This document shows positions 1,881 to 63,861 of a stretch of DNA of 64,000 nucleotides, one piece after another. Under the pieces are notes generated by a model, which saw only the letters and a list, made by a program, of their open reading frames with translations, was not told where the DNA came from and did not search any database. The stretch is taken from positions 1-64,000 of the IMG/VR virus record IMGVR_UViG_3300017605_000706; one strand, 5' to 3'. The stretch is from a virus. The translations under genes and the position numbers were made by a program. Position 1 is the first letter of the stretch. Each line of letters begins with the position of its first letter.

Positions 1881-2381
1881 ATGCTGAAGCTGTGTGATTA
1901 CCGACCGGTTGCGTCTACAAAAGACGACGCGTTGGAATTCGGTCGTCTAATCGCGGACAGTAAAAACAAAGGCCTTGATCCTGGGAAGGATCCTGCGTGT
2001 GAAGCTCTTTACAGAAAACTGAATCCTGACTGGTTTCGCAACTGCGACTGCCCCATCTACCGTGGAATTCTGTGTTGCGCCGTGGCAAAGGGCGCTGTAG
2101 AGCTTCGCGCTAAGCGTTTCCAGGCAACTATCGTAGCCGCTGTCATTGTCGGCATAGGTTATCGACCCGAACCGATGAAGCTGCTCATACACTCGACAGA
2201 AAACCTTGAATCTGCTTTGGATTCGGCGTGGCCACAGATCTATGAAGCGGTTCGACACTATCCCAGAACCCTTGGACCGTACAGATCGGTGGACGGAATC
2301 CCGTGGGAAATCCACAATATCAGCGACGCGACTGATCGCAAGAACGCCGTTGAACAGTACCTGAACGAGAAATTACCTTGA
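1881..2381 (+). CDS. PWEIH-module family protein
   Basis: IYRG motif; C-terminal SVDGIPWEIHNISDATDRKNAVEQY; GAGGAG RBS. Confidence 0.75.
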   Translation: MLKLCDYRPVASTKDDALEFGRLIADSKNKGLDPGKDPACEALYRKLNPDWFRNCDCPIYRGILCCAVAKGAVELRAKRFQATIVAAVIVGIGYRPEPMKLLIHSTENLESALDSAWPQIYEAVRHYPRTLGPYRSVDGIPWEIHNISDATDRKNAVEQYLNEKLP

Positions 2382-2785
2382 CTACTAAGAGTAACTACAT
2401 CGCAGCTCGCCGCGCCGCGCTTGCCGCTGCGACTCAATACGGCGCAGCTTTGGGGCAGGATCTAGACGCGAACGATCTACACGTCAAGCTCGAAGCCGCC
2501 CAACTGGCGCAGAGAGTGGCGTTCGAGGCGTGGGATCCCACCGCGTTTCGGGTGTTCACTGCGTGGGAGGTTTACGCCGACGCGTACCACGACGCAGCGG
2601 ACACCTTGGAGCCTCTTTCTGTGGATGCGACAGCAGACGAAGTCACTGCCATGATCTCGTTGATCAAGAGTGATCCGAGTGCAGCTGCGGCGCGGCAAAA
2701 GTACGAAGAAGCCGTCGCTGCAGCTGGCGGGCGCACTATCGAAGTGATCCGCGAACTGATGACAACGGAAGACGAAGGTAAGTGA
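2378..2785 (+). CDS. hypothetical Ala-rich protein
   Basis: coupled ORF in operon. Confidence 0.55.
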   Translation: MTTKSNYIAARRAALAAATQYGAALGQDLDANDLHVKLEAAQLAQRVAFEAWDPTAFRVFTAWEVYADAYHDAADTLEPLSVDATADEVTAMISLIKSDPSAAAARQKYEEAVAAAGGRTIEVIRELMTTEDEGK

Positions 2786-2961
2786 AGCCCTGGAAACGCG
2801 TGGTTCACGCCATTATCGGCTTGGTCTTGATCGGGCGGACCCTCGCGGTGCTGGTCGCCTTAGACCACGGCAACTGGAACGGATCGCGTCAGGATGGTGC
2901 AATCATGCTGCTAGCCATTGCTGTCTGGATCTTGCTCGACCGCAAGAAAGATGTTGAGTGA
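2782..2961 (+). CDS. small membrane protein (59 aa, below ORF-track cutoff)
   Basis: GTG overlapping the upstream stop, two hydrophobic segments, stop abuts the ligase ATG. Confidence 0.5.
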   Translation: MKPWKRVVHAIIGLVLIGRTLAVLVALDHGNWNGSRQDGAIMLLAIAVWILLDRKKDVE

Positions 2962-4077
2962 ATGCCACACCTGAAGAATTTCATCGCTGAAAACCCGTCC
3001 GACTGGCTCCCCAAGCTCGTCGAGACGTACAAGATCGACGCCGTTACTGCCGGTGACTTGGTCTCGCTCAAGTACGACCAGATCAACTCGCCGATGGCCG
3101 ATCCGATCGTCCAAGAATGCCGTGGAGTGATCGTCCACGTCCCAACCGGCGCCGTGTTGGCGCATCCCTACAACAAGTTCTGGAATCACGGCGAGCACCT
3201 GGCCGCAACGATCGACTGGTCGACTGCGCGCGTTCAAGACAAGCTCGATGGATCCTTGATGATCTTGTACTGGCACCCAGCGAACGGCGCTTGGCAAGTC
3301 GCCTCGAGCGGCAACCCTATCGCAGGCGGGCGTTTGGGCAAGCTCTCTTCGTCGTTTGCCGAAGCCTTCTGGGATACGTGGCGAACCCTGCGCATGACCC
3401 TACCGCGCATTCTGTTTCGGCGCGCTACGCTTATGTTCGAGTTCTGCAGCCCTGAAAACAGGGTTGTCTGCAGGTACCCCACACCGAGGATCGTTCTTCA
3501 CGGCGCTCGTTGGCTCGACGGCGAGCATGAGTTTTCTCGCGGTGACCTTATGGTGCTGGCAGACGAGATCGGCGCAGAGCTAATCCGTGAATGGCGCCTC
3601 AATGACCCTGCACTCGCGCTTCAGGACGCCGCTGCATTGGACCCAACGACACACGAAGGCTTCGTTGTCGTCGATGACTACTTCAACCGAGTCAAGATCA
3701 AGAGCCCGCGCTACGTCGCGCTTCACCACCTCAAGGGCAACGGTGCTGCGACAACTCGTCGAGCGATCGCCCTCTGGAAAGCCGGCGAAGTGGGCGAGCT
3801 GCTCGCGCACTTTCCCGAGCTGGTCCCAGATGTTCAGCCGGTGATCGACACGCTCTCTCTTGCTGCGGAAGCCGCTTACCAGCTTTGGCGTAGCGCCAGC
3901 GAGACGAGCGCTACCCGTAAAGACTTCGCGCTCGCCGTCAAAGACTCGCCTGTCGCGTCGGTCTGTTTCAAGCTGTACTCTCACGAAGCTCCGTCGCTGG
4001 ACGCAGCGCTCAGTATCCTACGAGACCTGAGCCTGGTTACGCTTGAGCAGCTCGTAGAGACTTTGACACGAAAGTAG
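2962..4077 (+). CDS. RNA ligase, T4 Rnl1-like
   Basis: ECRG, PYNKFWN, motif I KLDGSL, FEF, motif IV EGFVV, motif V KIKS. Confidence 0.85.
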   Translation: MPHLKNFIAENPSDWLPKLVETYKIDAVTAGDLVSLKYDQINSPMADPIVQECRGVIVHVPTGAVLAHPYNKFWNHGEHLAATIDWSTARVQDKLDGSLMILYWHPANGAWQVASSGNPIAGGRLGKLSSSFAEAFWDTWRTLRMTLPRILFRRATLMFEFCSPENRVVCRYPTPRIVLHGARWLDGEHEFSRGDLMVLADEIGAELIREWRLNDPALALQDAAALDPTTHEGFVVVDDYFNRVKIKSPRYVALHHLKGNGAATTRRAIALWKAGEVGELLAHFPELVPDVQPVIDTLSLAAEAAYQLWRSASETSATRKDFALAVKDSPVASVCFKLYSHEAPSLDAALSILRDLSLVTLEQLVETLTRK

Positions 4078-4081
4078 CCAC

Positions 4082-6269: not shown

Positions 6270-6659
6270 CTATCGAATTCGATGCGCCTTGTATACGTCT
6301 GTCGCGATCTTGCGCGTTTCAGGATCATCGATGTCGTGGATCTCCCACGGCAAGTCGTCGAACGGCTCAATTTGATCCGCGTCTGAGTACGTAAGCCGCC
6401 ACGGGATCCCGTCCGCGTTGCGCCAGTTCGCGTCTGCCCATTCAGTCAGCTCAAACACGCTCATCTCGGGCGCTGACACTAGCCGAGGCTCCTCGAACAA
6501 GCACACCCAATGGGGATAAAGATCGCGACGGCGCGTTCTTAGGAGCGGCAGATACCCCAATATGACCACGTGATTCGGCGACCGCACCGTACCGATACGA
6601 ACGCCTCGGTACTTATACGTCACACGTAAGCGGTCGGTTAAACACGGTGCGTGTGCCAT
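6270..6659 (-). CDS. PWEIH-module family protein (module partly duplicated)
   Basis: KYRG; ADGIPWRL followed by FDDLPWEIHDIDDPETRKIA. Confidence 0.7.
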   Translation of the reverse strand: MAHAPCLTDRLRVTYKYRGVRIGTVRSPNHVVILGYLPLLRTRRRDLYPHWVCLFEEPRLVSAPEMSVFELTEWADANWRNADGIPWRLTYSDADQIEPFDDLPWEIHDIDDPETRKIATDVYKAHRIR

Positions 6660-6970
6660 GCGGCCATCGCGATATTTCGCGCCTCTTTGTCAACGATCCG
6701 ATGGATCTCCCACGGAACTCCGTCCGCAGAAATCACCCCCTCTAACCATTCAGGGCTATCGAACCCGTACTTCTGAAGATGCGCATCAAGTTCCCTGTAA
6801 GCGTTCTCAGCAAACTCAGGGCTGTTCATCTTGTCAAGTAGCAGATCGGGAAGCTCCGTGTACTGGTCCTCGTGTACGCTCGTGGCGATGATCCGTGTCC
6901 ACCCACTGCGATGGACGTACAGTGTGAAGCCTCTGTAGACCAGCGTCCTAGCGGTTGAGTTGGAAAGCAC
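6638..6970 (-). CDS. PWEIH-module family protein (start uncertain; ORF open to 7051)
   Basis: VYRG; SADGVPWEIHRIVDKEARNIA. Confidence 0.7.
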   Translation of the reverse strand: MLSNSTARTLVYRGFTLYVHRSGWTRIIATSVHEDQYTELPDLLLDKMNSPEFAENAYRELDAHLQKYGFDSPEWLEGVISADGVPWEIHRIVDKEARNIAMAAWHTHRV

Positions 6971-7256
6971 TGATCGCTTCTTGTCGTGCTTCGGGGTCGT
7001 CGATATCGTGAAGCTCCCATGGGATACCGTCAACGGCGCGTAACGAAACACTTCGACGCCGCGCGTTCTTCACGTTCCCCCAACGCGCGTCGATCACTTC
7101 TCGCATGTCGGCTGGTAGGTCGCTGCCAGAAAGCGTGAACGACGCCAGCAGAACGCGCGTGCTACGATCCGAGTAGGCGTACAGATCTAGAAGCGTCACG
7201 TCCTCTTCGAACCAGACGCCTCGATATTCGCCCTGCTGCAGCCCCTGCATGTTCAC
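6948..7256 (-). CDS. PWEIH-module family protein
   Basis: EYRG; AVDGIPWELHDIDDPEARQEAISAF. Confidence 0.75.
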   Translation of the reverse strand: MNMQGLQQGEYRGVWFEEDVTLLDLYAYSDRSTRVLLASFTLSGSDLPADMREVIDARWGNVKNARRRSVSLRAVDGIPWELHDIDDPEARQEAISAFQLNR

Positions 7257-12128: not shown

Positions 12129-13739
12129 GTGCTACCCAAGGCAGCTAAACCAGACTGGTTCATCATTCCACGCAGCTGGTCGCGAGAGATCGACACGTTG
12201 CGTAAGAGCCCGCAGATTCAGTTCCTGTCGGAGTCCAAGGCCGCAGTCCATCTTTCGCACCTTCCGCTGATAACGCATCGGTCTGAAGTCCAGCAGACGA
12301 TCGCAGCGTTGGGCGCTCCCCAGATCAGCCGGACCGTTAGCCAGGACAACCTTTCTACTACAACGCTGCGACACCTGGAAGCGCTCTCGGCGGCAGGCAT
12401 CACGCCGAGGGCTCATCAGCTCGATATCCCGCGATTCGTTGCAACCCGACGCGGCGCCCTCATAGGTGACATGATGAGGACCGGCAAGACGGCCTCGAGC
12501 CTTCTGTGCCACGATCCCAGCGCTGGTAAGCTACTCGTCGTCGCGCCCTTGCCCACGCGCGAGGGCTGGCTGCGCTGGATCAACGCGATGTTCCCCAACG
12601 CTAGCACGTTCGTTGCGAAGGGCAAAGAGTACGATCCCGCTGTCTCAGAAGCAGACATCGTCTGGATCAACTACGACGTCTTGTCGCACTGGCGCGCTCT
12701 CGTAACGCTGCCTATCGGACTCGCCATCTTCGACGAAGCTCACCTGCTCTCGAATCACACCGCGCAGCGATCCTCGTCCGCGCTCATGCTCGCGACGAAA
12801 GCGCAGAAGACGCTGCTCCTGTCGGGCACGCCGCTTTGGAACAAGCCCGTCAACCTCTGGACGTTGTGCAACCTGATCGCTCCCGGCGCCTTCGGTTCGT
12901 ACGACGACTTCGGCAGTCGCTATGGCGCGCCAGAGCAGACCATGTACGGCCGCGTCTACAAGGGTGTCTCGAACGCTGAGGAACTCGAGGCGCGTTTCAG
13001 CTCGATCCAGATTGCCCGCTCATGGAAAGACGTCTCCGACAACGTTCCCGCGATCGAGCGCAGCACTGAGACCGTTCCGCTCTCGCAAGCTCAGCTCGAT
13101 CAGATAGACCGCGCTGTCTTCTCGGTAAAAGCCGCCCCTGGTAAGGGCGTCAAGGCCTTCCTAGCTGAGCTTGCACGATACCGCAAAGCCTTGGGGAAAG
13201 TCAAGGCGAAGACGGCGATCGAGTGGCTTCAGTGTGTCAACGAGCCCGTCGTCGTCTGGGCGTGGCACAAGGAAGTCGCCAAGGAGATCGCCGAAGGCTG
13301 CCACGGCTATCTAGTCACCGGCGACACGCCTCCTGAAGAGCGCGCGACGATCTTCGAAGCATGGGCCAAAGAGAACAGGCCTCTTGTCATGAGCATCTCA
13401 GTTGGCCAAGTTGGCTTGGATCTATCTCATGCGCGCCTTGCGCTCTTCTGCGAAGTTGACTGGACCCCGGCTGTTCTGGCTCAGACTGAAATGCGCGTGT
13501 TTAGCCCAGTGCGTCCGATGGCTGTCGTATACTTGGTCGCGGACCACCCATCTGAGCAGACTATGATCAAAGCCCTCTGGCGTAAGATAGACAACGCGCA
13601 GCAAATCGGCGTAGCTGCATCAGAAGGCGCGATCGACGTCCTCTGTGAAGCCTTCGGGATCGGTTACTCGAACTTCGATAAGCTTGCTGCCGCAGGCAAT
13701 CTTGATCGCCTCATGGCCGACGCGCTTAGCCATCAATGA
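12129..13739 (+). CDS. SNF2-family helicase (divergent)
   Basis: GDMMRTGKT, DEAH, LSGTP, VGLDLS, DWTP; motif VI QTEMRV degenerate. Confidence 0.8.
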   Translation: MLPKAAKPDWFIIPRSWSREIDTLRKSPQIQFLSESKAAVHLSHLPLITHRSEVQQTIAALGAPQISRTVSQDNLSTTTLRHLEALSAAGITPRAHQLDIPRFVATRRGALIGDMMRTGKTASSLLCHDPSAGKLLVVAPLPTREGWLRWINAMFPNASTFVAKGKEYDPAVSEADIVWINYDVLSHWRALVTLPIGLAIFDEAHLLSNHTAQRSSSALMLATKAQKTLLLSGTPLWNKPVNLWTLCNLIAPGAFGSYDDFGSRYGAPEQTMYGRVYKGVSNAEELEARFSSIQIARSWKDVSDNVPAIERSTETVPLSQAQLDQIDRAVFSVKAAPGKGVKAFLAELARYRKALGKVKAKTAIEWLQCVNEPVVVWAWHKEVAKEIAEGCHGYLVTGDTPPEERATIFEAWAKENRPLVMSISVGQVGLDLSHARLALFCEVDWTPAVLAQTEMRVFSPVRPMAVVYLVADHPSEQTMIKALWRKIDNAQQIGVAASEGAIDVLCEAFGIGYSNFDKLAAAGNLDRLMADALSHQ

Positions 13740-14167
13740 ACTGGGGGCCTTATCTAGCTGCTCGCGCAGCACAAGCGTTTCCGGGCATTCTGCTTTTGCG
13801 CGCTGTCAAAGACAGAGATGGTTCTATCTACTTGGACAAGACAACGATCTGGGCTGATTTTATGGCCTATCGGGGTCTCGTCTGGGCGTTCTCGGGTGGC
13901 GTAACGCAAAATCCATATCGTGCTGGCTACGGTCTAGGCCGCCACAAAGACCTGTTGGTGATTACGCGAAGAGTGCTGAGCCGTCCTGTCTGTAACCACT
14001 CAGACGCGGTCCATGTCGTTGACAGTTACTACCCCGAGCTAGCTGCTTGGCTTGGTACGATCAACGTACGTTCCGTAGACAGCCTTCCGTTCGAGTTGCA
14101 CGCGATCGACGATCTCGCAGCGCGTCGTGCGGCAGGGAAGGCTTACGTAGCGGCTAGCCTCGATTAG
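13736..14167 (+). CDS. PWEIH-module family protein
   Basis: AYRG; SVDSLPFELHAIDDLAARRAAGKAY; ATGA-coupled to the SNF2 gene. Confidence 0.7.
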   Translation: MNWGPYLAARAAQAFPGILLLRAVKDRDGSIYLDKTTIWADFMAYRGLVWAFSGGVTQNPYRAGYGLGRHKDLLVITRRVLSRPVCNHSDAVHVVDSYYPELAAWLGTINVRSVDSLPFELHAIDDLAARRAAGKAYVAASLD

Positions 14168-17879: not shown

Positions 17880-18410
17880 GTGGCATTCAAGCTCAAGCTC
17901 GTCGAACTTCTCACATGGGATGATCCTCAGGAACTGTGTCGTGATGAGCAGTGCCCCTTTGAAGGTGTCCACAAAGCAGGTTCTTGTCGCACGAGCCGCC
18001 AAGAGGCGTGCCTAGCCGATCGCGCCGGGAAAGTCAGATCTGCTCTAGACGAGTGCGTTTACGACTGGGTTACAACCCGCTTCGTTAGAACGTTTCGTGA
18101 CGTATACAGTGACGTGATCCAAGACTACGGTTCTATTACCGAACGAGGCGTGTATCGCGCTCTCGAGCGCCTGATCGACGCGCACCGCGTGATTCGCGTC
18201 GTTCCCTGGCCAAACGGTAGACTCTTGCGCCTGGGCGCCTACCTGCGGTATGATTCTCCTCTGATCTGGGACCTTAGCGGTCACGCTAATATCCAAGAAC
18301 AACTCCGCGATTGCGGCGTTGTTGCAGACGCGATTCCGCTCAAACCGGCTAGAGCGGCGCTCAAGCGCGCCCGCAAGATGACGCTGACGAATGACGCATT
18401 TTACGGGTGA
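17880..18410 (+). CDS. winged-HTH-like protein with N-terminal CRDxxCP..H motif
   Basis: ITERGVYRALERLIDAHRVIRV; GGGGAG RBS before GTG. Confidence 0.5.
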   Translation: MAFKLKLVELLTWDDPQELCRDEQCPFEGVHKAGSCRTSRQEACLADRAGKVRSALDECVYDWVTTRFVRTFRDVYSDVIQDYGSITERGVYRALERLIDAHRVIRVVPWPNGRLLRLGAYLRYDSPLIWDLSGHANIQEQLRDCGVVADAIPLKPARAALKRARKMTLTNDAFYG

Positions 18411-18882
18411 ATCAGAGCAGTTCGGTGTCGCGTGGACGCCGGATCAGATCGCCGCAGTGTGCCTCCAAAAGCCATATCAAGATCGCCGCTACTGGAAAAC
18501 GTATAAGAACACAATCGTGGGTATCGGCACGGAGGCTTCTGAGGTCTTCTCATGGCGTGGTCTCTTGGTGAGATCGACCGCCGACTACGATATCTACAAG
18601 CCTCAGCTGCTATACTCAGCAGGCAACTTTATGCCGCTTCGCAATGCCCATTATCTTGACGTGGTTTGCTACGAGCCGCTCACAGATAAGATTTACGTAG
18701 ATTGGCTAGAGTACGTGCGCGCGTTTGACGACGCGCTGAAGAGCCCTAGACCTAACGCTCTTTTGGCTCCTAAAAAGAAAAGCGTCCTACCTGTCGACGG
18801 GGTCCCATGGGAGATCCACGGGATTTCAGACGCAGAGCCCCGCCGGATAGCCATCGAAGCTTACCTAGACGAGCGGGTCTAG
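18391..18882 (+). CDS. PWEIH-module family protein
   Basis: SWRG; PVDGVPWEIHGISDAEPRRIAIEAY. Confidence 0.75.
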   Translation: MTHFTGESEQFGVAWTPDQIAAVCLQKPYQDRRYWKTYKNTIVGIGTEASEVFSWRGLLVRSTADYDIYKPQLLYSAGNFMPLRNAHYLDVVCYEPLTDKIYVDWLEYVRAFDDALKSPRPNALLAPKKKSVLPVDGVPWEIHGISDAEPRRIAIEAYLDERV

Positions 18883-19253: not shown

Positions 19254-22027
19254 CGAAGCCCGCGGAGCTTCGCGGTCCCGGCCCAGAAGCTGCCAACTGC
19301 GACGACTGTCCGCTTGCGAGAGGCAAGCACCGAGCTGTCCGTGGCGAAGGCTGCAGTAAGCCTCGCATGATCGTCATAGCGGAAGGCCCGGGATCGACCG
19401 AGATCTCACTCGGCCGTCCTCTTGTCGGCGAGTCGGGGAAGCTTCTCATGCGCGCGATGCTTTCGCAAGGCGTCAAGCGCGAAGAGGTCTGGCTCGGTAA
19501 CGCGACCCTTTGCCCGCCCGGCAACAACGACGACGCGTCTGTGCGCCGTCTTGCAGCTTATCACTGTAAGAACAGACTAGCCGCTGAGCTGGCGCAATTC
19601 GTCGACGAAGATACAGGCGCAGCTCCGGCGATCTTGGCTCTGGGCGGTGTCGCAGCCAACGCGTTACTCAACCCGAACAACGAGCCGAAGAAAGACGTCA
19701 CGATCTCGAAGATCGCTTCGACGCTTCATAACGTCAACCCGACGGGGCTCGCCGACCAGCACATGATCGCGCAGATCCACCCCGCGGCGATCTTGCGGGG
19801 TGGCGGCGGCTCAGGCGCACATGACGCGTCGCTGATCTACTGGAACCTGCAGTCCGACATCAAGAAAGTGGCGGGCCTGTCCGACGGGTCCATACAGCCG
19901 TTCAGCGCAGACGTTATCGTAGCCAACAACGATCAGGAAGGCGAAGACGCCTGGGCCAAGATCGAGATCTCGATCCGTCGCCACAAGCGGATCGCAGTAG
20001 ATACGGAGACACGTTCGTGGAACGATAAGCGCTGGTCTGCGCTTCAGCCGCTGCGCGTTCACATGCACGCGCTCGGGATCGCGACGGTTGATATGGGTAT
20101 CTCGTTCGACACCGAAGCGATGCTGCCCGCCGAGATTTTGTGCCTAGAAGATCATACGGCACGGATCGTCGCGCTGCGCGCGTACATCCAAGAGCATCCC
20201 GTGTTCCGGCGAATCGCTAAAGTCCTGGCGGACCCGGCGATCGTCAAGATCTATCACAACCGTCTGTACGATATTCCAGTCCTCGAGAACCACGGCTTCC
20301 GTCTGGAAGGCGCGCAGCACTGTACTGTTCTATTGCACCACGTAGCGTACCCCGGCGCTGCCCACAACCTACAAGCGGTCGTCGCGCAGCAGTTCCCGGT
20401 GAAGCCGTGGAAGAGCGAGTTCCGTAACGGTGTCGCCGAGAAGGGCGAGACACGGGCTGACCTGCTGGACTATAACGCCAAAGATACTTTGGGCACCGCG
20501 CGCGTCTTTCACCCGCTGTTCGTGCACGTCAAGCAGTGTAACGCCGAACGCGCGTACAAGTTCGATCTGCGTATGGCTGCGGCTGCCGATGAGATGCACC
20601 GTACAGGCATCCCCGTCGATCGCGACGAGAATGAGGCGCTCAAGACGCAGTTTGATCGCGTTCTACAGGAGTCGGAGGCTAGCCTCAACGAGATCTTCGA
20701 AGCCAATCGCGAGCCGATCCTCGAAGACATCGCGCGTGAGCAAGCGAAACGCCAACGCAAGAGCGACTCAGACGACTATCTCGAGCGTATTGAGATCCGT
20801 CGCTGTGAGCTACAAAAAGAGATCGCCAAGGGCAAGTTCAAGTGGTCTGTCGACGCAAGCGACCAGTTGATTGCTCTCTTGAAAGCGCTCAAAGTCACGC
20901 TCACGAAGCGGACTGAGAAAGGCAAAGTTGCGACGGACAAAGAAGTCCTTGAGCAGCTAGGGCACATCCCACAGATACGTAACATTCTCGATTATCGTCA
21001 GTCGCAGAAGATGCTCAGCACCTTTGTCGATCCGATGTTTGATCGTCATGACGACACCGGCAAGCTGATCTCTTACGGCTACGTCGATAACGACGGACGG
21101 ATCCACCCGCGCTGGTCCATCCACAAGATCTCGTCTCGCTGGGCAAGTGAAGATCCGATCGTCTCCAACGTTCCCAAGGACGACGCCAAAAAAGGCCGTC
21201 CAAATCTACGTCAGCAGTTCAAAGCAAAGCTTGGCCGCATCCTGGTTGGCTTTGATAAAGCACAGCTCGAAGTTCGTATCATTGCGCTACTGTCCGGTGA
21301 CAAGTTCCTGCTCGAAGTCTTCCGCGACAACAAGGACATCCACACGGAGCTAGCCAAAGTCATCTGGCCTACGTTCCCGTGGCACGCCTTCGAGATTGGC
21401 AAGAAACTAGTCGCCGAATGCGGCGACGACAAGAAGAAAGCCGCAGCTAAGTACCCCTCTCATGACTGGAAGTCGTGGGCAGAGGGCAAAGTCATGCGCG
21501 ATACAACTAAGCGCAGCGAGTTCGGCACGTGGTACCGCGGCGGAATTGAGGCCATCTGGCGCAATATCATCAAAGACTATCCCAGCGTCAAGATGGCGGA
21601 CATCGCGCGCCTTGTCGCTGTCATGAAGAAGAACTGTACGGGCGTGGCTGCTTGGCATGAAGAGCTTGCCAAGCGTGTCGCGCGCGCTCCTCACGAGCTG
21701 AGATCTCACTTCCTCGAGCGCCGTCGTGTGTTCCCGCTCGGTAATGCGTCTCCCACCGAGTACAGCAACATTATCGTTCAGACGTCCGCGACCGAGCTAG
21801 TCAACATGGGCCTCGATCGCATCATGCCGAGGCTGCACAACGACTATCACGACGCGCACCCGATCATCCACATGCACGACGCGATCGTGTTTGAGTGCGA
21901 TGAGGACGACGGTGACCGGCTCTTGAGCGACGTCAACGAGTGCTTCTACGACGAACACGAATCGAACGGCGTCACGATGAAGTTCCCAATTGACGCCAAA
22001 ATCGCAAACAACTGGGCTGACCTATGA
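19208..22027 (+). CDS. polA: family A DNA polymerase with N-terminal family-4 uracil-DNA glycosylase-like domain and 3'-5' exonuclease
   Basis: CDDCPL, EGPG, G..GKLL, HPAAILR (UDG); DTET, HN..YD, YN.KD (exonuclease); DKAQLE, R..TK..EFG..Y, HD (polymerase motifs A/B/C). Confidence 0.9.
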   Translation: MYDDGDDWVSPDDLVAKPAELRGPGPEAANCDDCPLARGKHRAVRGEGCSKPRMIVIAEGPGSTEISLGRPLVGESGKLLMRAMLSQGVKREEVWLGNATLCPPGNNDDASVRRLAAYHCKNRLAAELAQFVDEDTGAAPAILALGGVAANALLNPNNEPKKDVTISKIASTLHNVNPTGLADQHMIAQIHPAAILRGGGGSGAHDASLIYWNLQSDIKKVAGLSDGSIQPFSADVIVANNDQEGEDAWAKIEISIRRHKRIAVDTETRSWNDKRWSALQPLRVHMHALGIATVDMGISFDTEAMLPAEILCLEDHTARIVALRAYIQEHPVFRRIAKVLADPAIVKIYHNRLYDIPVLENHGFRLEGAQHCTVLLHHVAYPGAAHNLQAVVAQQFPVKPWKSEFRNGVAEKGETRADLLDYNAKDTLGTARVFHPLFVHVKQCNAERAYKFDLRMAAAADEMHRTGIPVDRDENEALKTQFDRVLQESEASLNEIFEANREPILEDIAREQAKRQRKSDSDDYLERIEIRRCELQKEIAKGKFKWSVDASDQLIALLKALKVTLTKRTEKGKVATDKEVLEQLGHIPQIRNILDYRQSQKMLSTFVDPMFDRHDDTGKLISYGYVDNDGRIHPRWSIHKISSRWASEDPIVSNVPKDDAKKGRPNLRQQFKAKLGRILVGFDKAQLEVRIIALLSGDKFLLEVFRDNKDIHTELAKVIWPTFPWHAFEIGKKLVAECGDDKKKAAAKYPSHDWKSWAEGKVMRDTTKRSEFGTWYRGGIEAIWRNIIKDYPSVKMADIARLVAVMKKNCTGVAAWHEELAKRVARAPHELRSHFLERRRVFPLGNASPTEYSNIIVQTSATELVNMGLDRIMPRLHNDYHDAHPIIHMHDAIVFECDEDDGDRLLSDVNECFYDEHESNGVTMKFPIDAKIANNWADL

Positions 22028-24542: not shown

Positions 24543-24794
24543 ATGCTTTTGCTTCAGCAATGGCAACAGACCGAAAATTTCGAGCCTGATAATCCGACGC
24601 AGGCGCGTTTCGAGACGTATTTCGCTCTTCCGGGGGGTCATGTATCGACCTATTGGAACGGTGAAGCTGTTACAGGCGGCACCCTCATGGGTCCCGTCGA
24701 CACCGCTGTTGACATGGTCAAGTCTAACTGGAAGATCCTCGGCGCAATCGGCCTCGTGGCCGGCGCGCTACTCGCTTACAAGCATAGCCGCTAG
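24543..24794 (+). CDS. small tail-anchored membrane protein
   Basis: C-terminal WKILGAIGLVAGALLAYKHSR. Confidence 0.6.
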   Translation: MLLLQQWQQTENFEPDNPTQARFETYFALPGGHVSTYWNGEAVTGGTLMGPVDTAVDMVKSNWKILGAIGLVAGALLAYKHSR

Positions 24795-25091
24795 GTACGC
24801 GCCTTTTGCAGCTGCGTACGCTACCTCGTCCTCGATCGCGTGGATCTCAAGAGGGACCTCATCGAATGACTTGAGGCGGTGCTGCGCAGCTAGCTCTACG
24901 ACGTAGAGCCACTCCGATCGAGGCCACCCAGACCGAATGCGGTGGCGCTTATCAGTGCCTGGCTCAAGCGCGTCTACGTTGTAGAAAACGTTCCCGGCGT
25001 AGTTGATGCGCAACGTCTTCATCAGGGCCATCGCAGCCGTTATCTGGCCGGGGCTCTCAACCAACGTCCAGTCAAGTCCGCGATAGATCAT
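24768..25091 (-). CDS. PWEIH-module family protein
   Basis: IYRG; SFDEVPLEIHAIEDEVAYAAAKGAY. Confidence 0.7.
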   Translation of the reverse strand: MIYRGLDWTLVESPGQITAAMALMKTLRINYAGNVFYNVDALEPGTDKRHRIRSGWPRSEWLYVVELAAQHRLKSFDEVPLEIHAIEDEVAYAAAKGAYLAAMLVSE

Positions 25092-25401
25092 ACGCGTCGG
25101 CCGCTGCCTTGAACGTGTCCTCGTCTTCGATCAGCATCAGTTCGATCGGGTACGCCAACTTGGCGTGTAGCTGACGATTGAAGAACACAGACTTAGCTTC
25201 AACCGTCTTTCTAAGATACTCGATCATGTACACGCTGGCCAGTACTTCGATGGGCCAAGTCATGTCCTCCGCCGTAAGCCTTGCAACGTACTTTAGCTCA
25301 CCATCGATCACTGCGTACAGCGCCGGGCCCTTCTTGGCGCCACTGCGAAACTTGTCGCCGCTATACACGGCAACTTCGATTCCTCGCCAGCTATACCCCA
25401 T
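25072..25401 (-). CDS. PWEIH-module family protein (divergent)
   Basis: SWRG; YPIELMLIEDEDTFKAAADAY. Confidence 0.6.
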   Translation of the reverse strand: MGYSWRGIEVAVYSGDKFRSGAKKGPALYAVIDGELKYVARLTAEDMTWPIEVLASVYMIEYLRKTVEAKSVFFNRQLHAKLAYPIELMLIEDEDTFKAAADAYDLSRT

Positions 25402-25860
25402 CTAAAGCGCGCTTCCGAAGTAAGCGTCAAGCGCCGCCTCGAGCGCGGTGGGATCTAAGATCATGGCGATCTCCCATGGGATACCTGAAGGCGTCACGGT
25501 TCCAGGCTCTGGCGCCCAGATCGACAAGATGAATTCGTCGAGGGTCAGCTTGGCCCAATGAGGGGTCATCGCCTGGAATGGCAGGACTGTTTCGCAGCGG
25601 AGCAGCTCACGTGCGCTATGCTTTGCGTTGGCAGGCCGCGCGTACAAGTACTCTAGTCCTATAGCTTCATCTTCATCGATACTCAAATGCCATAGCGTCC
25701 CCAGGGCCAGAAACGAGATCGTACCCAACCGAGCGTGCATGGGCCACGTAGCGCGGCGCGCCCACGTACTAGACGACTCCGCGAACAGCTCACCATCTCT
25801 ATCGCGCGAGCAGCGCATGAGCTTGCCGTACAGGGTATCGAACGGGTCACGCTTGGTCAC
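25402..25860 (-). CDS. PWEIH-module family protein
   Basis: PSGIPWEIAMILDPTALEAALDAY. Confidence 0.65.
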   Translation of the reverse strand: MTKRDPFDTLYGKLMRCSRDRDGELFAESSSTWARRATWPMHARLGTISFLALGTLWHLSIDEDEAIGLEYLYARPANAKHSARELLRCETVLPFQAMTPHWAKLTLDEFILSIWAPEPGTVTPSGIPWEIAMILDPTALEAALDAYFGSAL

Positions 25861-25866: not shown

Positions 25867-27753
25867 TCAGACCTGCGGCACCTTCGATTTATTCACGAGG
25901 CTGATCGCCAACCTCCACTCTGTATCGGTCAGGCCAGTCTCAAGGTTTGTCACTAGTCCCTTGGCTATCTCGTTAGATTCCGCTAGCTTAGGCAACTCTT
26001 GCGCGGCGCGGCGTTCCTTGCCGGACTTCGCTTGCCGTACCGCGGGCACGCCTAGCTTAGCGATCTCTTGGATCATAGATCCGATCATGGCCTGGCGGAC
26101 AACCGTCTCCGTTACCAGATCCGCATCAGGCGCCGTGACAGCTGCGTCTACGCTCGCTGCGATATGCTGGCGCTTCTCCGCGATCACGTCAGCGATGCGT
26201 CGCTCGAGAGGGTGATCAGCCACGAGTGTTCTGATCTGACACGCGCGCGTTTGCCCGATTCTGTGAACGCGGTCGCTCGCTTGGTCATTCTCACCGGGCG
26301 TCCAAGCCTGATCCACGAACATTAGCTCGCTCGCTCGCGTGAGTGTCAGCCCTGTTGATCCTGCGCCGATCGTCAGTGCTACCCCTCTGAGCTTTCCCTC
26401 TTGGAACGCTTCTGCGACGGCTTGCGCTTCTTTGACACGCCGACCGTTCACGTAGTAGTCACCGCCACCGAGCACAGTGCCCCAGAAGGCGCGTTTGCAC
26501 AGCACTTCGATCGGCGCTCTGTGCGCCGAGAACACGATGAGCGGCTGTTCCTCTTCCTCAGCTTCTTCAACAACAGTCAGCATCGCCGGGATCTTGCTGG
26601 CTGCTACCTGAGCGCGCACGCGCGACATGTCGTAGAAGTCCGGCATGACGCCGTCGAAACTCTCGAGATCGATCCCGCGTGCTTGCAAAACGGTCACGAC
26701 TTCGTCGAGGGCTGATAACGCCTCCATGTCGATCTCGACGAACGTGTCCGTGTAGATCTTGTCCGGCAAGTCGGTCAGTACGTCTTCTTTTCTACGGCGC
26801 AGCATGACGCGGCGCAGGCGATCAGCCACTTCAGGCTGCGCAAAACCCCACGCCGCGCCTGCGCCTTGTTCGCGGCCGTCGTGCAGCTCGAGGAAGTTCT
26901 TGTAGCTACCAAACGCTTCGTCAGCAGCGCCGATATTCTCTAGGATCGTCCACAGCTCACCAGGACGGTTCAGGAGCGGCGTACCTGTCAACGTCCAAGC
27001 GTACCCGCCACGAGACCGCGCAAGGCTGGCCAGCGCTCTCCATCGCTTGGTCCGCTTGGCCTGAAACGACTTGACGTAGTGCCCCTCGTCGGCAATGACG
27101 GTCAAGCCTTCCGGGATCGGATAGATCGACTCGTAGAGCGCAAGCTTCTCGTCGTCTACAAGGCGCTCGTAGTTCAGGATCACGACTTCGGACTTGCCGG
27201 GCCAGCGAAATGTCTTCGGGATCGTCGCCTTGAGGTCAGGGCGCCACTTGTTGATCTCAGCTCGCCACGTACCGCGGACGTTGGCAGGGCAAATCACGAT
27301 AGCGCTGCCGTAGGGCAGAGCTGCAAGTGCTTGACATGATTTACCTAATCCCATCTGGTCGGCCAGTAGCGCCGAGCTTCTCGAAGCCAGCCAACGCCCG
27401 CCCTCTCTCTGGAACGGGTACAGCGACAGACCTCGCCGGGACGCGATCTCGTCGAACCAGATGAGCCTCTTGTCGGCTTCAGTCCTGATTGCCGACGCGG
27501 TCTCTACGAAAGCCTGAACGCGCTCGGCCACGGCGCGGTCAACACGTAGCGCGACGCTCGATAGCTGCGTCAACCGCTCGAGGATCGCGACCGCCTTGTC
27601 GACGGCTACTTCATAGCGGTGCGACTCGCTGTTCCAGTGCGCGCCGTCGAGAGCGCGCCGGTACGCCTCGTACTTCGGCTTGTCCAGGTTCGAGTGCGAG
27701 ATCTGGATCAGCCCGTCGACGTACGTGACGTTTACGGAAGGGGGTCGTGACAT
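25867..27753 (-). CDS. SNF2-family (HARP/SMARCAL1-like) helicase
   Basis: YPFQ, ADQMGLGKS, DEGH, LTGTP, RRRKEDVL..LP.K, GLTL, QASDRVHRIGQ. Confidence 0.9.
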   Translation of the reverse strand: MSRPPSVNVTYVDGLIQISHSNLDKPKYEAYRRALDGAHWNSESHRYEVAVDKAVAILERLTQLSSVALRVDRAVAERVQAFVETASAIRTEADKRLIWFDEIASRRGLSLYPFQREGGRWLASRSSALLADQMGLGKSCQALAALPYGSAIVICPANVRGTWRAEINKWRPDLKATIPKTFRWPGKSEVVILNYERLVDDEKLALYESIYPIPEGLTVIADEGHYVKSFQAKRTKRWRALASLARSRGGYAWTLTGTPLLNRPGELWTILENIGAADEAFGSYKNFLELHDGREQGAGAAWGFAQPEVADRLRRVMLRRRKEDVLTDLPDKIYTDTFVEIDMEALSALDEVVTVLQARGIDLESFDGVMPDFYDMSRVRAQVAASKIPAMLTVVEEAEEEEQPLIVFSAHRAPIEVLCKRAFWGTVLGGGDYYVNGRRVKEAQAVAEAFQEGKLRGVALTIGAGSTGLTLTRASELMFVDQAWTPGENDQASDRVHRIGQTRACQIRTLVADHPLERRIADVIAEKRQHIAASVDAAVTAPDADLVTETVVRQAMIGSMIQEIAKLGVPAVRQAKSGKERRAAQELPKLAESNEIAKGLVTNLETGLTDTEWRLAISLVNKSKVPQV

Positions 27754-28100
27754 GCAGAGATGAAGGCTTGCCTAGCAGCCGCGTACGCGATCTCGTCTTC
27801 TATACGGTGGATCTCCCAGGGAACGCCGTCAACAGGGTGGCCTAGCGGCTGCCTCATCAGAAAAGCGTCGTCGTCACGCGGTATGAACATCGTCCAATCA
27901 GCTCCAGCCCAGTGCAGCAGGCCCCTCTCGACCAAGATAGGCGTGAAGCCCTCCCTCTGATCAATCTCATGAGGTGGGCAGCAATCGGTAATATACGTGT
28001 ACGAAGTGCCGTCAAAGACGAGCTTTAGGCCGATCAGATTGTAGCACTGCGCCAGCCGAATGCAACCCGCTGTCCACGGTGTTATCTGTACGATATTCAT
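27732..28100 (-). CDS. PWEIH-module family protein
   Basis: PVDGVPWEIHRIEDEIAYAAARQAF. Confidence 0.75.
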   Translation of the reverse strand: MNIVQITPWTAGCIRLAQCYNLIGLKLVFDGTSYTYITDCCPPHEIDQREGFTPILVERGLLHWAGADWTMFIPRDDDAFLMRQPLGHPVDGVPWEIHRIEDEIAYAAARQAFISACHDPLP

Positions 28101-28471
28101 AGACTTCTCAGGTAAGCTTCCCGCGCCGCCGCGTACGCAAAGCCGTCATCGATACGGTTGATCTCCCACGGAACGCCGTCTACGGAATGCTTGCCGTCGA
28201 TCACGGGGTGGAACCCGGGGTAGTAACTCACGACTTCGAGCGTGAATCTGTCAGCGCTCAACGCGTATCTCTGGTCGAAGACATACAAGCAGCCTCTGAT
28301 CCGCGTGGCCACCTCAGCGTGAACTCGGTATTCGAGGCTTAGGCGCTCTAGGAGCGCGCTGTTGTCGTTAGATCCTGTAGAGAAGCAGCGCAGCCACGCG
28401 CGTCCGTGATCACGGATCAACAGCGTGTCTGCGGAGCGCCACCCTGATATCCTTGTGGGGAACCTCGTCAT
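28097..28471 (-). CDS. PWEIH-module family protein
   Basis: SVDGVPWEINRIDDGFAYAAAREAY; ATGA coupling. Confidence 0.75.
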   Translation of the reverse strand: MTRFPTRISGWRSADTLLIRDHGRAWLRCFSTGSNDNSALLERLSLEYRVHAEVATRIRGCLYVFDQRYALSADRFTLEVVSYYPGFHPVIDGKHSVDGVPWEINRIDDGFAYAAAREAYLRSL

Positions 28472-49226: not shown

Positions 49227-49231
49227 GGCTT

Positions 49232-53506: not shown

Positions 53507-54004
53507 TTACCGCGAGTAGCTAGGCTCGAGGATCGTTCCTGTGGGGAACGTCAGCGTCGCAGTAGCCCCCGCTGTGACGTATTGGTCAAACGGCGCCCAG
53601 TCCAGCGCGTTGTAACCCATGATTACGTGGGATGCGATTTTGACCTCGTGTTCGAACGTGAACGCGCGCGTTGCTGCGTCTCGAGCGACGTGGTGATGAA
53701 TTCTGTGAATCTCCCACGGCAGTCCATCGATAGCTACGCAGCTCTCGAGGAGCCGTTCGCCCCGGAAGGTTCTGTGTTCGAATTCGAACCAGTAGGCGTT
53801 GATGCGCTGCCGTACGTGTTCGGCGATCTTCTCGGGATCAGGCTTGCCCTTGGTCGATAGAATCTGGCGTCGGTGCAGGCTGAGGGGATCGCTCTTTCCG
53901 TGAAGTTCCCGCGTGAATAGCTCGACGACGCCGCGCGCTTCGAGCCTCACCTCGAAGCCTCGATACCATACGATCTGGCGCCCGACGGTGATTATGTCAG
54001 CCAT
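53507..54004 (-). CDS. PWEIH-module family protein with C-terminal extension
   Basis: WYRG; AIDGLPWEIHRI; LDWAPF..FPTG. Confidence 0.75.
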   Translation of the reverse strand: MADIITVGRQIVWYRGFEVRLEARGVVELFTRELHGKSDPLSLHRRQILSTKGKPDPEKIAEHVRQRINAYWFEFEHRTFRGERLLESCVAIDGLPWEIHRIHHHVARDAATRAFTFEHEVKIASHVIMGYNALDWAPFDQYVTAGATATLTFPTGTILEPSYSR

Positions 54005-54498
54005 GCTTTGATCTCATACTTCAAGTGCTCGCCTGTCGGAAATCGTAAGATAGCCTGCTTGGGGAACTGGACATAGCCTAGCGTCGTCCTTGGCAGCTTC
54101 TTCTTCGCTGAACCAGAACACTCGGTGACTGATCTGAATGGCGGCCAATCGAGTACGCCGCTGTCTAGATCTACGGTGATCTCGACGCTCTTTAGATAGC
54201 TGCAAAGAGCAGACGCGTAAGCTATCTCGTCTTCGATCGCGTGGATCTCCCAAGGCACGTAGTCGATCGCGTGATAGTACTCAAGGTCTCTGAACCTGAC
54301 TACTCGGTTTGACTCGAAAAAATACCTTCCGGGCGGCTTCTTCCGTGGCCGAACCAAGACGCGTGCGTCCCGCGTTTCTACACCGCGTATCCAGCTGAGG
54401 CCTACAGGATCTTGCGAAGCGCTTCGCTGCCAGCGGTACATGCCAGGGCCGCCAACGCTAAGATATCTGCCCCCAGTCCGTGAAAGATGCACCGTCAT
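53992..54498 (-). CDS. PWEIH-module family protein with C-terminal extension
   Basis: WIRG; AIDYVPWEIHAIEDEIAY; LDWPPF..FPTG. Confidence 0.75.
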   Translation of the reverse strand: MTVHLSRTGGRYLSVGGPGMYRWQRSASQDPVGLSWIRGVETRDARVLVRPRKKPPGRYFFESNRVVRFRDLEYYHAIDYVPWEIHAIEDEIAYASALCSYLKSVEITVDLDSGVLDWPPFRSVTECSGSAKKKLPRTTLGYVQFPKQAILRFPTGEHLKYEIKAWLT

Positions 54499-54962
54499 AG
54501 CTTGGCTTTGGGACGCGTGATCTCACCTGTAGGGAATACTAGCTTCACTGAAGCGCCGTTGAACGGAGGCCAATGTAGCGTCTCGTGGAGAGTCACCTCG
54601 GCGCTCTGTAGATAGGCCTTTGTCGCAGCAAGGCGCGCCGTGGTGTTCGTGATCCGATGGATCTCCCACGGAATGTAGTCTACGGCTGTCATCGCGCTCA
54701 TCGCGCCGTCTCGTAGAAGATGCGTTGTCTTGCCTCGGATCTGAAGCTCGATATCGCCTTTGAGGCGGGCCTTGTGCAAGGCGATGAAACACAAGTTGCC
54801 GTGCGATCGGACGTGGAACCGCAGCTCGCGTTGGTCTGCCAGGCTGTAATGGAGAACGCGAATCTCAAATCCGCGATGCCATGCTAGGTCTCGCTTCTCG
54901 TTCCAGTAGATGTCAGACGACGTCGACGGGGTCGTTGTCGGCATGGAGTACAACGTCTTCAT
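54495..54962 (-). CDS. PWEIH-module family protein with C-terminal extension
   Basis: WHRG; AVDYIPWEIHRI; LHWPPF..FPTG. Confidence 0.75.
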   Translation of the reverse strand: MKTLYSMPTTTPSTSSDIYWNEKRDLAWHRGFEIRVLHYSLADQRELRFHVRSHGNLCFIALHKARLKGDIELQIRGKTTHLLRDGAMSAMTAVDYIPWEIHRITNTTARLAATKAYLQSAEVTLHETLHWPPFNGASVKLVFPTGEITRPKAKL

Positions 54963-55680
54963 TGAACCACGAAACCGCGACATCGATCGGCGTCAGCTCA
55001 AGGGACGCCCGAATCGTCGATGGGTCGTGCGCGTCCTTGATGCCTTTCTTGATGTCCTTGACAGCCGCTTTCACGCAGTCGACGGCGTTGCGTAGGATGG
55101 TTCCCGGGACGCCGAGCGCTAGCTTGTCGAGGTTGCGTGACCGGATCTGGATCGTCTTGACCAGATTCAGATCGAGGGCGAGAAGCGCATCCTTGTAGTC
55201 AGCCAGGTGACTCGTGATCGTGTCAGCGATAGCCTTCGCAGCTGCAGGACCGTCCTGGCCGTCTCCGCTCGAGAGGAGCGCAGTCATCATGGCAATACGA
55301 ATCCTGTGACGAGAGCCGACTGTACGCGCCTCTTCGTTCAGAGCATCGGCCTCTTCCTTGAGAGGGCCGATCTCGGCACGGAGCTTAGCCAGCTGCTCAT
55401 CAGTCGCGACGAAGCCGAAGCTGACGAGAGTGGCGTGGCTGCGGAACATGTAGTCGATCTTGTTGCGCAGCTTAGCCATCTTCGCAACCACAGGCTCGTG
55501 GTCAACCTTCTTGACGACGATCGACTCAGTCCGCGTTCCAGCCGTGCCTTCAGCGGTTGTGCTAATTGGCTGCCGCTCGTACTGAACGCCGCCACCGGAC
55601 TGCGTCGCGTTCAAAAGGATCCACTTTACAGCGAGGGTGACGGTCTTGTTATCTGCGCTCGTGATACTAATCGTGCTCAT
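54913..55680 (-). CDS. helical protein downstream of the AAA/VWA pair
   Basis: coiled-coil-rich 255 aa ORF. Confidence 0.6.
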   Translation of the reverse strand: MSTISITSADNKTVTLAVKWILLNATQSGGGVQYERQPISTTAEGTAGTRTESIVVKKVDHEPVVAKMAKLRNKIDYMFRSHATLVSFGFVATDEQLAKLRAEIGPLKEEADALNEEARTVGSRHRIRIAMMTALLSSGDGQDGPAAAKAIADTITSHLADYKDALLALDLNLVKTIQIRSRNLDKLALGVPGTILRNAVDCVKAAVKDIKKGIKDAHDPSTIRASLELTPIDVAVSWFNEDVVLHADNDPVDVV

Positions 55681-61710: not shown

Positions 61711-61977
61711 ATGCCTTCAACCGACAGCAAGAATCGCATGTCACGAGCCGTGGCCAAGCGCATCGCCAAGGAATTCAAGCGTACTACGCGGCGTGACGCG
61801 TGGGCTTGGACGACAGCGCACGCGGAGATCGTTGACGCGCTTGTGATGGATGAGATCCGCGTCGCATGGACGGCCGACAGCGCCGCCGTCTTTACTCCGG
61901 CTGAGATCATGGAGTTCCGCTCGATGCTCGTCGAGGAACTTGCCGCTGCCGGGTACCCGATGGAGGAAGCCAAGTGA
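61711..61977 (+). CDS. hypothetical protein
   Basis: GGAG RBS; plus-strand run. Confidence 0.55.
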   Translation: MPSTDSKNRMSRAVAKRIAKEFKRTTRRDAWAWTTAHAEIVDALVMDEIRVAWTADSAAVFTPAEIMEFRSMLVEELAAAGYPMEEAK

Positions 61978-62492
61978 CCGCCCGCATCGAAGTGGATCAC
62001 TCCGAGGACTGCCCCACGCGCATCCGGGGCGGTCGATGCACCTGCGAAGTCCAGGTGAGCGCACGCAACGTGACCGAACCGGTGAAGGCCCGCATCACCA
62101 CCCGAGCCGGCCGCAAGATCCGCCACGTCGCGCCGGGTCACGTGGTGGACGTGGCGACGGGCCAAGGATTGTGGCGCTACAACGCGCCCGGGTTCATGCC
62201 GCGAGCCGTATGGATGGGGATGGAGCCCGGCAGCGGCGCGTGGCTGGACTGGTGGGTCGCGAGGCGCCCCGAGCGAGAGGACCGCGCACCTAAGCAATTC
62301 ACGCTCGGCCGGATGGTTCCACTTCTCGTCCGCGTGATGCTGGCGATCGGGGGCTGGGGTATCGAGGAGCGCAACCGTCTCGCGGATTCGATCATCGAGG
62401 AACTTGCCTTGGAAGAACAACTCGTGCGCGGGGCCTGCGGCGTAGTCTCCGGGCTTATCGAGGCGTGGCAGGCGATCGGGGGATGGTCGTGA
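61974..62492 (+). CDS. hypothetical protein
   Basis: GGAGG RBS; coupled; H..DC..C.C N-terminus. Confidence 0.5.
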   Translation: MTARIEVDHSEDCPTRIRGGRCTCEVQVSARNVTEPVKARITTRAGRKIRHVAPGHVVDVATGQGLWRYNAPGFMPRAVWMGMEPGSGAWLDWWVARRPEREDRAPKQFTLGRMVPLLVRVMLAIGGWGIEERNRLADSIIEELALEEQLVRGACGVVSGLIEAWQAIGGWS

Positions 62493-63435
62493 GCCGTTAC
62501 AATCGCAAGACAACGCCGGTGGCTACTCTTCGCGACGACGAGATCTCGCAGGAGATCGCGCTCCGAAAGTCCGACGCCAACCTGAACGAGAAGCACGTCA
62601 CCGTGACCAGCTATACGTGGCCTAGCACGCCTGCGATCACTGGTCGCCGCACGGCTCCGCTTCCGCCCAACTGGGTCGTACCGAAGGTTTGAATAGCCTA
62701 GCACAGCTAAAGGTCAAATTGCCATGTCAAAGATCAAGCTTGTCCCGCCTACGAACACTCACAGCATGTTCACGATCATCACGTACGACGCCGTTGGCGT
62801 GACTCACACAGTTCTTCATGTCGCGCCCTGGAAGTTGACGGCTGTAGGCGCGCAAGGCGAAGTGGTCACGCTGCGCGACGTGGGAGGCCCCCTTGCGACG
62901 ATCCCATGTACTGACAGCGAAGAGGCCCAGAACCTCTCACGGGACATCGCAGACCTCATGGAAGAGACTGAGCGCTAGCCATGCCCAAGACCACCCCTAC
63001 GTATCGAGTCACTGTTTCAGTGTGCGTGCCGGTCTCCCTCACGCTGACGATTCAGCGTGATGAGCACGATCCCGATATTGCCCAGATTATCGCCGTTGAC
63101 GGTCCTATGTACGCTCCGTCTCTGACAACTGTGCGTGAGTGCCTCGACGAAGAGACGCTCACGTATATCGACAAGCAGCTCGCTGCGCTGGCGCTTGAGG
63201 ACGCGCGCTAGCGTCATGCCCCGCGCAGAGCTTACCCCAGCGCAGCAGGCACTGTATGATTCTATCCAGAGTAGCGGTGAATCAATCATCCCCAATCGCG
63301 GGCAGACTCGAGAGTCGTCACGCGCGCGGTCCGCGTGGATTCGGACGGCGAAGAGCCTTCGCAAGAAGAATCTGATCGCGCTGCAGCAAGTTGGTGTTGA
63401 TACCTGGAAAGCCTCTAGGCTATGAAGCAAACTGG

Positions 63436-63861
63436 ATGATCTACGCGCTAAGATCGGGGTCGGCGCGCCCTCCAGCGCGTGTAACACGTTGGCCAGGGAT
63501 CGCGTTTCCTATCCCATTCCAAGAATGGCGAGGCCGCATATACCGCGGCCTCTTTTTCGGTGTGCACGGAGTGAAGGAAGGCTCACCTATTTGGTCCGGC
63601 GTGGTGCGCGCGCGGACCTGCGACTACGTTGACTACAAGTCGACTATGATCGCCTCTAACGCAAACTCGCTGCGTCACTTCATCGCGACCGGAGAGCTTC
63701 CTCCGCGCGTCGAGGACGCGTTTGGGTGCTGGCTGCACGAGCGGTTAGCTCAAGGTACACGCAGCCTTGATATGATTCCTCTCGAGATTCACGCTATCGC
63801 TGACCCTGCTGCGTATCAAGCTGCGATCAGAGCTTACCAGAGCGCGTCAGCGCCCTTCTGA
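63436..63861 (+). CDS. PWEIH-module family protein
   Basis: IYRG; SLDMIPLEIHAIADPAAYQAAIRAY. Confidence 0.7.
   Translation: MIYALRSGSARPPARVTRWPGIAFPIPFQEWRGRIYRGLFFGVHGVKEGSPIWSGVVRARTCDYVDYKSTMIASNANSLRHFIATGELPPRVEDAFGCWLHERLAQGTRSLDMIPLEIHAIADPAAYQAAIRAYQSASAPF

Follow-up and report, generated by a model that had tools for sequence, protein, structure and literature searches.

The MGF110, MGF360 and MGF505 multigene families (MGFs) of African swine fever virus (ASFV) and the Bcl-2-like family of poxviruses are sets of paralogs thought to bind different host targets, and functions are known for some of these families. Among bacteriophages, tandem arrays of more than 30 similar genes have been described in the jumbo phages G and 121Q (Hua et al. 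2017, PMC5646251). The stretch of DNA analyzed here, hereafter the window, is the first 64 kb of the linear IMG/VR virus record IMGVR_UViG_3300017605_000706 (97,432 bp, estimated to be 87% complete), which derives from an uncultured phage. Our subject is a family of small proteins with a conserved tail module that has 37 members in the whole record, where their genes occupy 15,645 bp, or 16% of the DNA. These appear to be small stand-alone single-domain proteins that form a lineage-specific multigene family expanded long ago.

A preliminary description of the window had proposed a genome-wide family of about 17 small genes sharing this module and had found no name for it. The paralog family is real and indeed unnamed, but the true count is about double. 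All 17 of the open reading frames (ORFs) named earlier exist, and their translations (102-168 aa) each contain the module. A tail profile run against all stop-to-stop frames of the whole record found 35 members at E <= 1.4e-3, plus the diverged members at 25072 and 30233. As a noncircular test of membership we used a profile built from 134 proteins of other samples only (the external-only profile), which recovered 35 members of the whole record at E <= 2.5e-6 and, among the ORFs of the window, 15 of the 17 at E <= 6e-10 (in-genome E). The remaining two, 25072-25401 and 30233-30670, are classed as diverged members because of their weaker E values with this profile (Table 1). Nine instances of the coding pattern for P-W-E-I-H-x-I stand in the window, while 100 shuffles gave 0. 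Twenty of the 37 members lie beyond the window, 17 of them at 64-77 kb within a block of small plus-strand genes; the last member of the window (63436) opens this block, which in total spans 63.4-77.3 kb and holds 18 members. The module had been described as C-terminal except in a trio of genes at 53.5-55 kb. That exception holds for the trio, but members 95906 and 96803, beyond the window, also have C-terminal extensions.

Alignment of the 37 members revealed three shared elements: an N-proximal hairpin with the motif [Y/W/H]-R-G-[LFV]-x-[WFI] (YRG), a Trp lying some 20 residues ahead of the tail, and the tail itself, [PSA]-[VIL]-D-G-[VI]-P-W-E-I-H-x-I-x-D-x-x-A-[RY]-x-A-A-x-x-A-[YF]. In a set of 171 family sequences, the R and G of the upstream motif, which had been noted before, are invariant in 135-136, that is, wherever the region aligns; the central Trp is present in 92 of 144 sequences, and in the tail the polar residues D, E, H and D are near-invariant. 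The sequence between the motifs, which had been thought impossible to align, is in fact aligned by profiles, conserved Trp included. Codons of the motif vary synonymously (CCG/CCA/CCC/CCT, GAA/GAG, ATC/ATT, CAC/CAT), and the earlier view that selection acts on the peptide stands. Members range in isoelectric point from 4.7 to 10.0 and are rich in Trp (3.6% versus 1.6%). One common property such as DNA mimicry was dropped as an explanation, since this spread of isoelectric points counter-indicates it.

The preliminary description had read the family as modular, with a common docking tag appended to different N-terminal domains. Several lines of evidence speak instead for a single compact alpha/beta domain that includes the tail. 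A search of 1.84 billion representative proteins with the 37-member profile gave 212 matches at E <= 1e-3, and the 150 of these that were listed are 61-179 aa long and mostly aligned from hairpin to tail. A tail-only profile run against longer proteins (71-2000 aa) gave only family-sized matches of 85-195 aa. Neither search found the module fused to other protein types; it was seen solely in stand-alone proteins of 60-195 aa. Since minimal members begin M-I-Y-R-G and end a few residues past the tail helix, we place the size of the domain at about 95-105 aa. An AlphaFold2 model of one such member, 24768-25091 (59-row alignment; mean predicted local distance difference test score, pLDDT, 79.6; predicted template modelling score, pTM, 0.67), has three long strands, two helices, a short helix at P-W/L-E-I and a terminal helix, and is thus a single compact domain, the one uniform fold that the preliminary description had itself named as incompatible with its scheme. 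Covariation in the alignment gives modest support to a contact between hairpin and tail: among the top 20 long-range covarying pairs, 6 link hairpin columns 10-16 with tail columns 77-97, compared with about 2 expected by chance. No separate substrate-binding repeat domain (ankyrin, LRR, WD40) was found by Pfam-A in any of the 37 members; the proteins measure 100-180 aa, and the minimal member is modelled as one domain. A homodimer prediction of the minimal member scored 0.01, was run without controls and carries no weight either way.

The near-invariant residues themselves invite a different explanation, in which the R, D, E, H and D make up a shared active or ligand site that binds metal or nucleotide, say, or catalyses a reaction, while the variable parts set specificity. 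The placement of invariant charged and His residues in both the N- and the C-terminal motif, which are probably in contact, would suit such a site. However, some members lack His or Glu and are conserved all the same (25402, the PWEIALI trio at 76.0-77.3 kb and the P-x-A-I/L-H group at 64-67 kb), no enzyme or ligand-binding family or fold was matched, and it would be difficult to account for 37 isozymes in a single phage. We consider a common site of this kind improbable.

A weaker form of the docking idea deserves more weight. The conserved tail, perhaps together with the YRG hairpin, might dock all paralogs to a single hub of phage or host, for example the replisome, which we think unlikely though worth keeping in view, and the variable surface might then recruit different targets, to which we give the same low rating. 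In 20 ortholog-like pairs the tail, the best-conserved part, has 71% identity and the body 52%, in agreement with the earlier picture of a variable body and a conserved module; this difference, the almost invariant polar residues of the tail and the stringing of members with replication genes would all be expected of a docking element. The same holds for a tail-like segment in the phage's PolA (residues 306-330), the top non-family match of three family profiles (in-genome E 1.8e-4, 0.008 and 0.024). The similarity between family and PolA is confined to an insertion of 21-23 residues inside the exonuclease domain; only the three closest polymerases (73-100% identical) have this insertion, among which it evolves fast, and it is absent from three more distant polymerases that were compared. 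Against a hub, no other type of protein was found to carry the tail, both the model and the covariation place it within the fold, and the Ala-rich face of its helix (A..AA..A) suits tight internal packing.

The PolA segment may be related to the family tail. Because the similarity is marginal and fades in P0165, one of the three closest polymerases, the likeness may be due to chance, and this too tells against a hub. That the tail is a shared interaction element, and that the polymerase of the phage gained it too through the lineage-specific insertion in the exonuclease domain, strikes us as quite doubtful. If it were true, the polymerase and about 37 diversified small proteins would either compete for one common partner or assemble on it, and a single expanded fold would supply the phage with an adaptor or regulator system of its own at the replisome.

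The relationships among the members show that they are old. Outside this genome, 21 of the 37 have as their best match a protein that aligns over nearly the full length at 46-66% identity, and three further members have near-identical external matches (93-98%), while the best match to a paralog in the same genome mostly covers the tail of about 29 aa alone or reaches 26-35% identity over the length. In a maximum-likelihood tree an external protein is the nearest neighbour for 27 of 28 members, and the distances between paralogs of the genome, 3.4-5.6 substitutions per site, have reached saturation. The region 6.27-7.5 kb has a relative at about 90% in the 1-kb metagenome contig L021, which carries the same three members in the same order. 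Against it, the ratios of nonsynonymous to synonymous substitution rates (dN/dS) of the three genes are 0.18, 0.23 and 0.29, and those of the bodies alone 0.11-0.13. The bodies, which had been taken for diversified, are thus old and conserved: the external partners, the tree and the low dN/dS mark them as the product of old divergence under purifying selection and not as hypervariable. By these comparisons the duplications are old and the paralogs are held under purifying selection in related phages.

This history bears on the possibility that the copies are selfish or mobile cassettes, spreading between core genes in the manner of free-standing homing-endonuclease genes or recombining at a shared 3' end. 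Copies do stand on both strands beside core genes, and the DNA that encodes the tail recurs as dispersed repeats of 43-68 nt with 60-81% identity. Such an identity is, however, too low for frequent homologous exchange, and the saturated divergence of the paralogs, the conservation of orthologs, the order of the trio at 6.3-7.3 kb kept in L021 and the lack of any nuclease family or fold match make mobility extremely improbable.

The phage encodes a UDG-exonuclease-PolA fusion, two SNF2 helicases, an RNA ligase and an AAA ATPase with a DUF2201 VWA/metallopeptidase protein. It also has sugar-nucleotide enzymes, glycosyltransferases, two tailspikes and a tyrosine recombinase. No cultured phage has a PolA more than 25% identical to that of this phage. 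The coupling of members to core genes that had been reported is borne out: they lie on the same strand as the SNF2, PolA and AAA/VWA genes, often with overlapping stops and starts. Four gene strings illustrate this, one with three members, SNF2 and three more members on the same strand (28893-24768), one with SNF2 followed by a member (12129-14167), one with a member upstream of PolA, and one in which AAA, DUF2201 and a 255-aa gene precede three members (58178-53507). The two SNF2-family helicases, at 12129-13739 (+) and 25867-27753 (-), are paralogs, and each is flanked by family members. Neither tRNA genes, in the whole record, nor a repeated intergenic motif marking a promoter class was found. 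Farther along, two adjacent tailspike-like genes (748 and 709 aa; genome 90804-95172, -), whose N-terminal regions match tailspike PHROGs, have two members with C-terminal extensions just upstream.

In phage T4, internal proteins use a shared targeting peptide for loading into the capsid. By analogy, the shared module could be a targeting signal that loads diverse small proteins into the virion for injection. Otherwise diverged small proteins with a common terminal module would be the expected cargo, and two members adjoin the tailspike genes at 90.8-95.2 kb; but most members stand among replication genes and small, probably early, genes rather than structural ones, the module belongs to the fold and is no detachable peptide, and a feature resembling a protease site was not seen. 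We regard this route as very unlikely.

The reading that we favour, though we rate it no better than even, is that the family is a panel of intracellular binders on one conserved scaffold serving host takeover, counter-defence or replication control. The YRG hairpin, the Trp of the middle helix and the C-terminal turn and helix would be parts of one fold, with hairpin and terminal helix clasping each other and the sheet and loops between them differing among paralogs. Members would act within the infected cell, each binder being retained for its own host or replication-related target in host takeover or counter-defence, and would be expressed together with the adjoining replication genes (SNF2, PolA, AAA/VWA) and in the long plus-strand block of small genes. 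A binder panel fits best because it accounts together for a conserved clasp, variable surfaces, dozens of separately conserved copies, the lack of a virion context and the lack of an enzyme signature. Selection retains every copy in related phages, so the family must be important for the infection.

Several points weigh against this reading or the single domain on which it is built. Residues 20-60 of the 24768-25091 model are only middling (pLDDT 60-70), and a longer member, 27732-28100, modelled with an alignment of its own paralogs only, came out poorly outside the tail. The signal of covariation is a modest one, and subfamily structure can inflate it; the dN/dS ratios rest on just 16-26 substitutions per gene. 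Finally, the invariant polar residues (the R of YRG and the D, E, H and D of the tail) exceed what a fold core usually needs and could mark a shared functional site.

Searches for relatives of the family returned little. No described family of Pfam, PHROGs or PADLOC was matched; in profile scans of the members against these three collections the best E was 0.019, each such hit being confined to a single member. When all 37 were run against Pfam-A with hmmscan, none of its families reached E <= 0.1 in two or more members, and three unrelated chance matches were all that appeared. The F-box and PRANC families (PF00646, PF12937, PF09372), to which the preliminary description had likened the tail, are absent from these Pfam-A hits, even from the three chance ones, and the analogy is not upheld. 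The family profile had 0 matches at E <= 10 among PDB sequences. Fold searches with the medium-confidence model gave best E values of 0.28 (Foldseek, PDB) and 0.15 (BFVD), and VIA-align over 48,161 chains gave a best Z of 3.3, none of these being above background; type III chaperone-like and YbjN-like chains recur there at Z 2.2-2.8, with no evidential weight. Given the medium confidence of the model, the proteins may still have a known fold. The ESM Atlas held no usable match. Two candidate assignments were set aside, namely a GIY-YIG nuclease, prompted by the letters YRG, for which there was no profile or fold match, and membership of the DEDD 3'-5' exonucleases (ExoI/II/III motifs), suggested by the PolA similarity, for which the members showed no PF01612 match and are too short for a fold of about 170 aa.

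The distribution of the family is similarly narrow. No GenBank phage matched any member, and scans of other IMG/VR records with two DNA patterns, the family alignment and the SNF2 protein found neither the family nor a close relative. At the stringency of a motif scan, 185,579 species genomes gave 13 chance matches and zero members. Ten external members that were looked up are singletons on metagenome contigs of 0.7-11 kb (Logan, JGI, ENA, NCBI). A metagenome pattern scan gave 20 loci; true members occurred only on the short contigs L018, L021 and L022, with 2-3 each, and the remaining loci were chance PWEIH matches. Short near-identical contigs came from four runs labelled soil or freshwater and are too fragmentary for synteny or for gene gain and loss. 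A literature search found no described phage family of this kind. By these searches, the family has no detectable known relative and is confined to scattered metagenome contigs.

Table 1. Members of the family in the window, and the tail-like segment of PolA
Feature	Position	Strand	Evidence or remark
Member, 166 aa, C-terminal tail	1881..2381	+	External-only profile E 9e-15
Member, 129 aa; degenerate second DGIPW upstream of tail	6270..6659	-	About 86% amino acid relative on contig L021
Member	6638..7051	-	dN/dS 0.23 vs L021
Minimal-form member, 102 aa	6948..7256	-	dN/dS 0.18 vs L021
Member; start overlaps stop of SNF2 helicase 12129-13739	13736..14167	+	External-only profile, gene context
Member upstream of UDG-exo-PolA gene	18391..18882	+	External-only profile, gene context
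Tail-like segment LPAEILCLEDHTARIVALRAYIQEH in PolA exonuclease domain, residues 306-330	20123..20197	+	18 bits, in-genome E 1.8e-4
Minimal-form member, 107 aa, begins MIYRG; structure modelled	24768..25091	-	pLDDT 79.6, pTM 0.67
Diverged member, tail YPIELMLIEDED	25072..25401	-	External-only profile E 3.4e-4, aligned over profile 14-91
Member without His (PWEIAMILD)	25402..25860	-	External-only profile
Member overlapping start of SNF2 helicase 25867-27753	27732..28100	-	External-only profile, gene context
Member	28097..28543	-	External-only profile
Member, first gene of the array-SNF2-array gene string	28468..28893	-	External-only profile
Most diverged member, tail LPVEIYRIEDPDA	30233..30670	+	External-only profile E 2.2e-3
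Member with extra C-terminal module W-x-PF...FPTG	53507..54004	-	Alignment, external-only profile
Member with extra C-terminal module	53992..54498	-	Alignment, external-only profile
Member with extra C-terminal module; downstream of same-strand AAA and DUF2201-VWA genes	54495..54983	-	Alignment, context, profile
Member, ATG start inside ORF 63391-63861; first of the 63.4-77.3 kb block	63436..63861	+	External-only profile

The start codons of the family are uncertain, because Shine-Dalgarno-like motifs precede only 11 of the 37 starts, and some of the long N-termini stem from the rule of taking the longest ORF. An example is the member at 6638-7051, whose true start is probably a GTG at about 6970, 12 residues before YRG; its ortholog begins 7 residues ahead of YRG. 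The GC content at third codon positions is 0.64 in the family and 0.73 in the large genes of the record. The trio at 53507-54983 (-) shares the second C-terminal module, W-x-PF ... FPTG, which the external relatives P0015, P0022, P0049 and P0067 carry as well.

Other repeated elements were seen in the window. Small, very basic ORFs (79-89 aa) at 37367-37606, 37607-37849 and 38638-38907 (+) have unalike bodies and a C-terminal module GGLGYVYQGT-x3-(S)WKA-x-RR-x-GR; they look like a second mini-family with a conserved tail and overlap longer minus-strand ORFs, which leaves their coding strand unsettled. At 47789-48505 and 48507-49271 (-) lie two paralogs in tandem (238 and 254 aa), with an identity of about 60% as judged by eye, and the neighbours 4082-4864 and 5085-5663 (+) begin with the same 18 codons (MTDEEINK.EAL..., DNA 74% identical) and are probably paralogs as well. 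A 45-nt repeat at 60291-60335 and 60820-60864 (82% identical) covers a stop, a short spacer and the next ATG, and could be a repeated translation-initiation or regulatory region.

One sixth of the DNA of this phage thus belongs to a protein family described in no database. Massive expansion of a small protein, so far noted in jumbo phages, extends here to a phage of about 100 kb, with copies interleaved with replication genes. Should the members be binders on a common scaffold, they would amount to a compact natural library of host-targeting proteins, and a real link to the polymerase would hint at a further layer of replisome control. The family profile can also serve as a marker for an uncultured phage lineage of soil and freshwater.

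Comparison with known systems shows where the family stands. With the poxvirus ankyrin/PRANC proteins it has no more in common than the notion that many paralogs of a single virus carry a conserved C-terminal element; the phage proteins match no F-box or PRANC profile, have no repeat domains, and carry the C-terminal element inside a single small domain. PRANC acts through eukaryotic SCF ligases, and no bacterial counterpart of this route is evident for the phage family. A different lead comes from the bacterial single-stranded DNA-binding protein (SSB), whose C-terminal tip, D-D-D-I-P-F, must be a free C-terminus. The D-G-I-P-W of the tail resembles D-D-I-P-F and the family stands among replication genes, a likeness of value as a lead only; unlike the SSB tip, the family motif is internal, is followed by a 20-residue helix and is embedded in a folded domain. 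The MGF families of ASFV and the Bcl-2-like family of poxviruses are closer in kind, being old panels of paralogs on one scaffold with each copy conserved, although their sequences and hosts are unrelated to those considered here. The closest resemblance is to the arrays of phages G and 121Q. There, as here, dozens of diverged copies of one small protein without an assigned function occupy one phage genome, and a conserved helix or motif is joined to a variable remainder with no recognized fold and a presumed intracellular action. The motif differs, however, and there is no sequence relationship, those phages being absent from the search results; the genome that carries the family, at about 100 kb, is not that of a jumbo phage; and its copies are single, paired or in triplets on both strands among replication genes, in addition to one long block. 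The likeness is therefore one of the kind of system and not of homology: many anciently diverged one-domain paralogs in one phage, restricted to one lineage.

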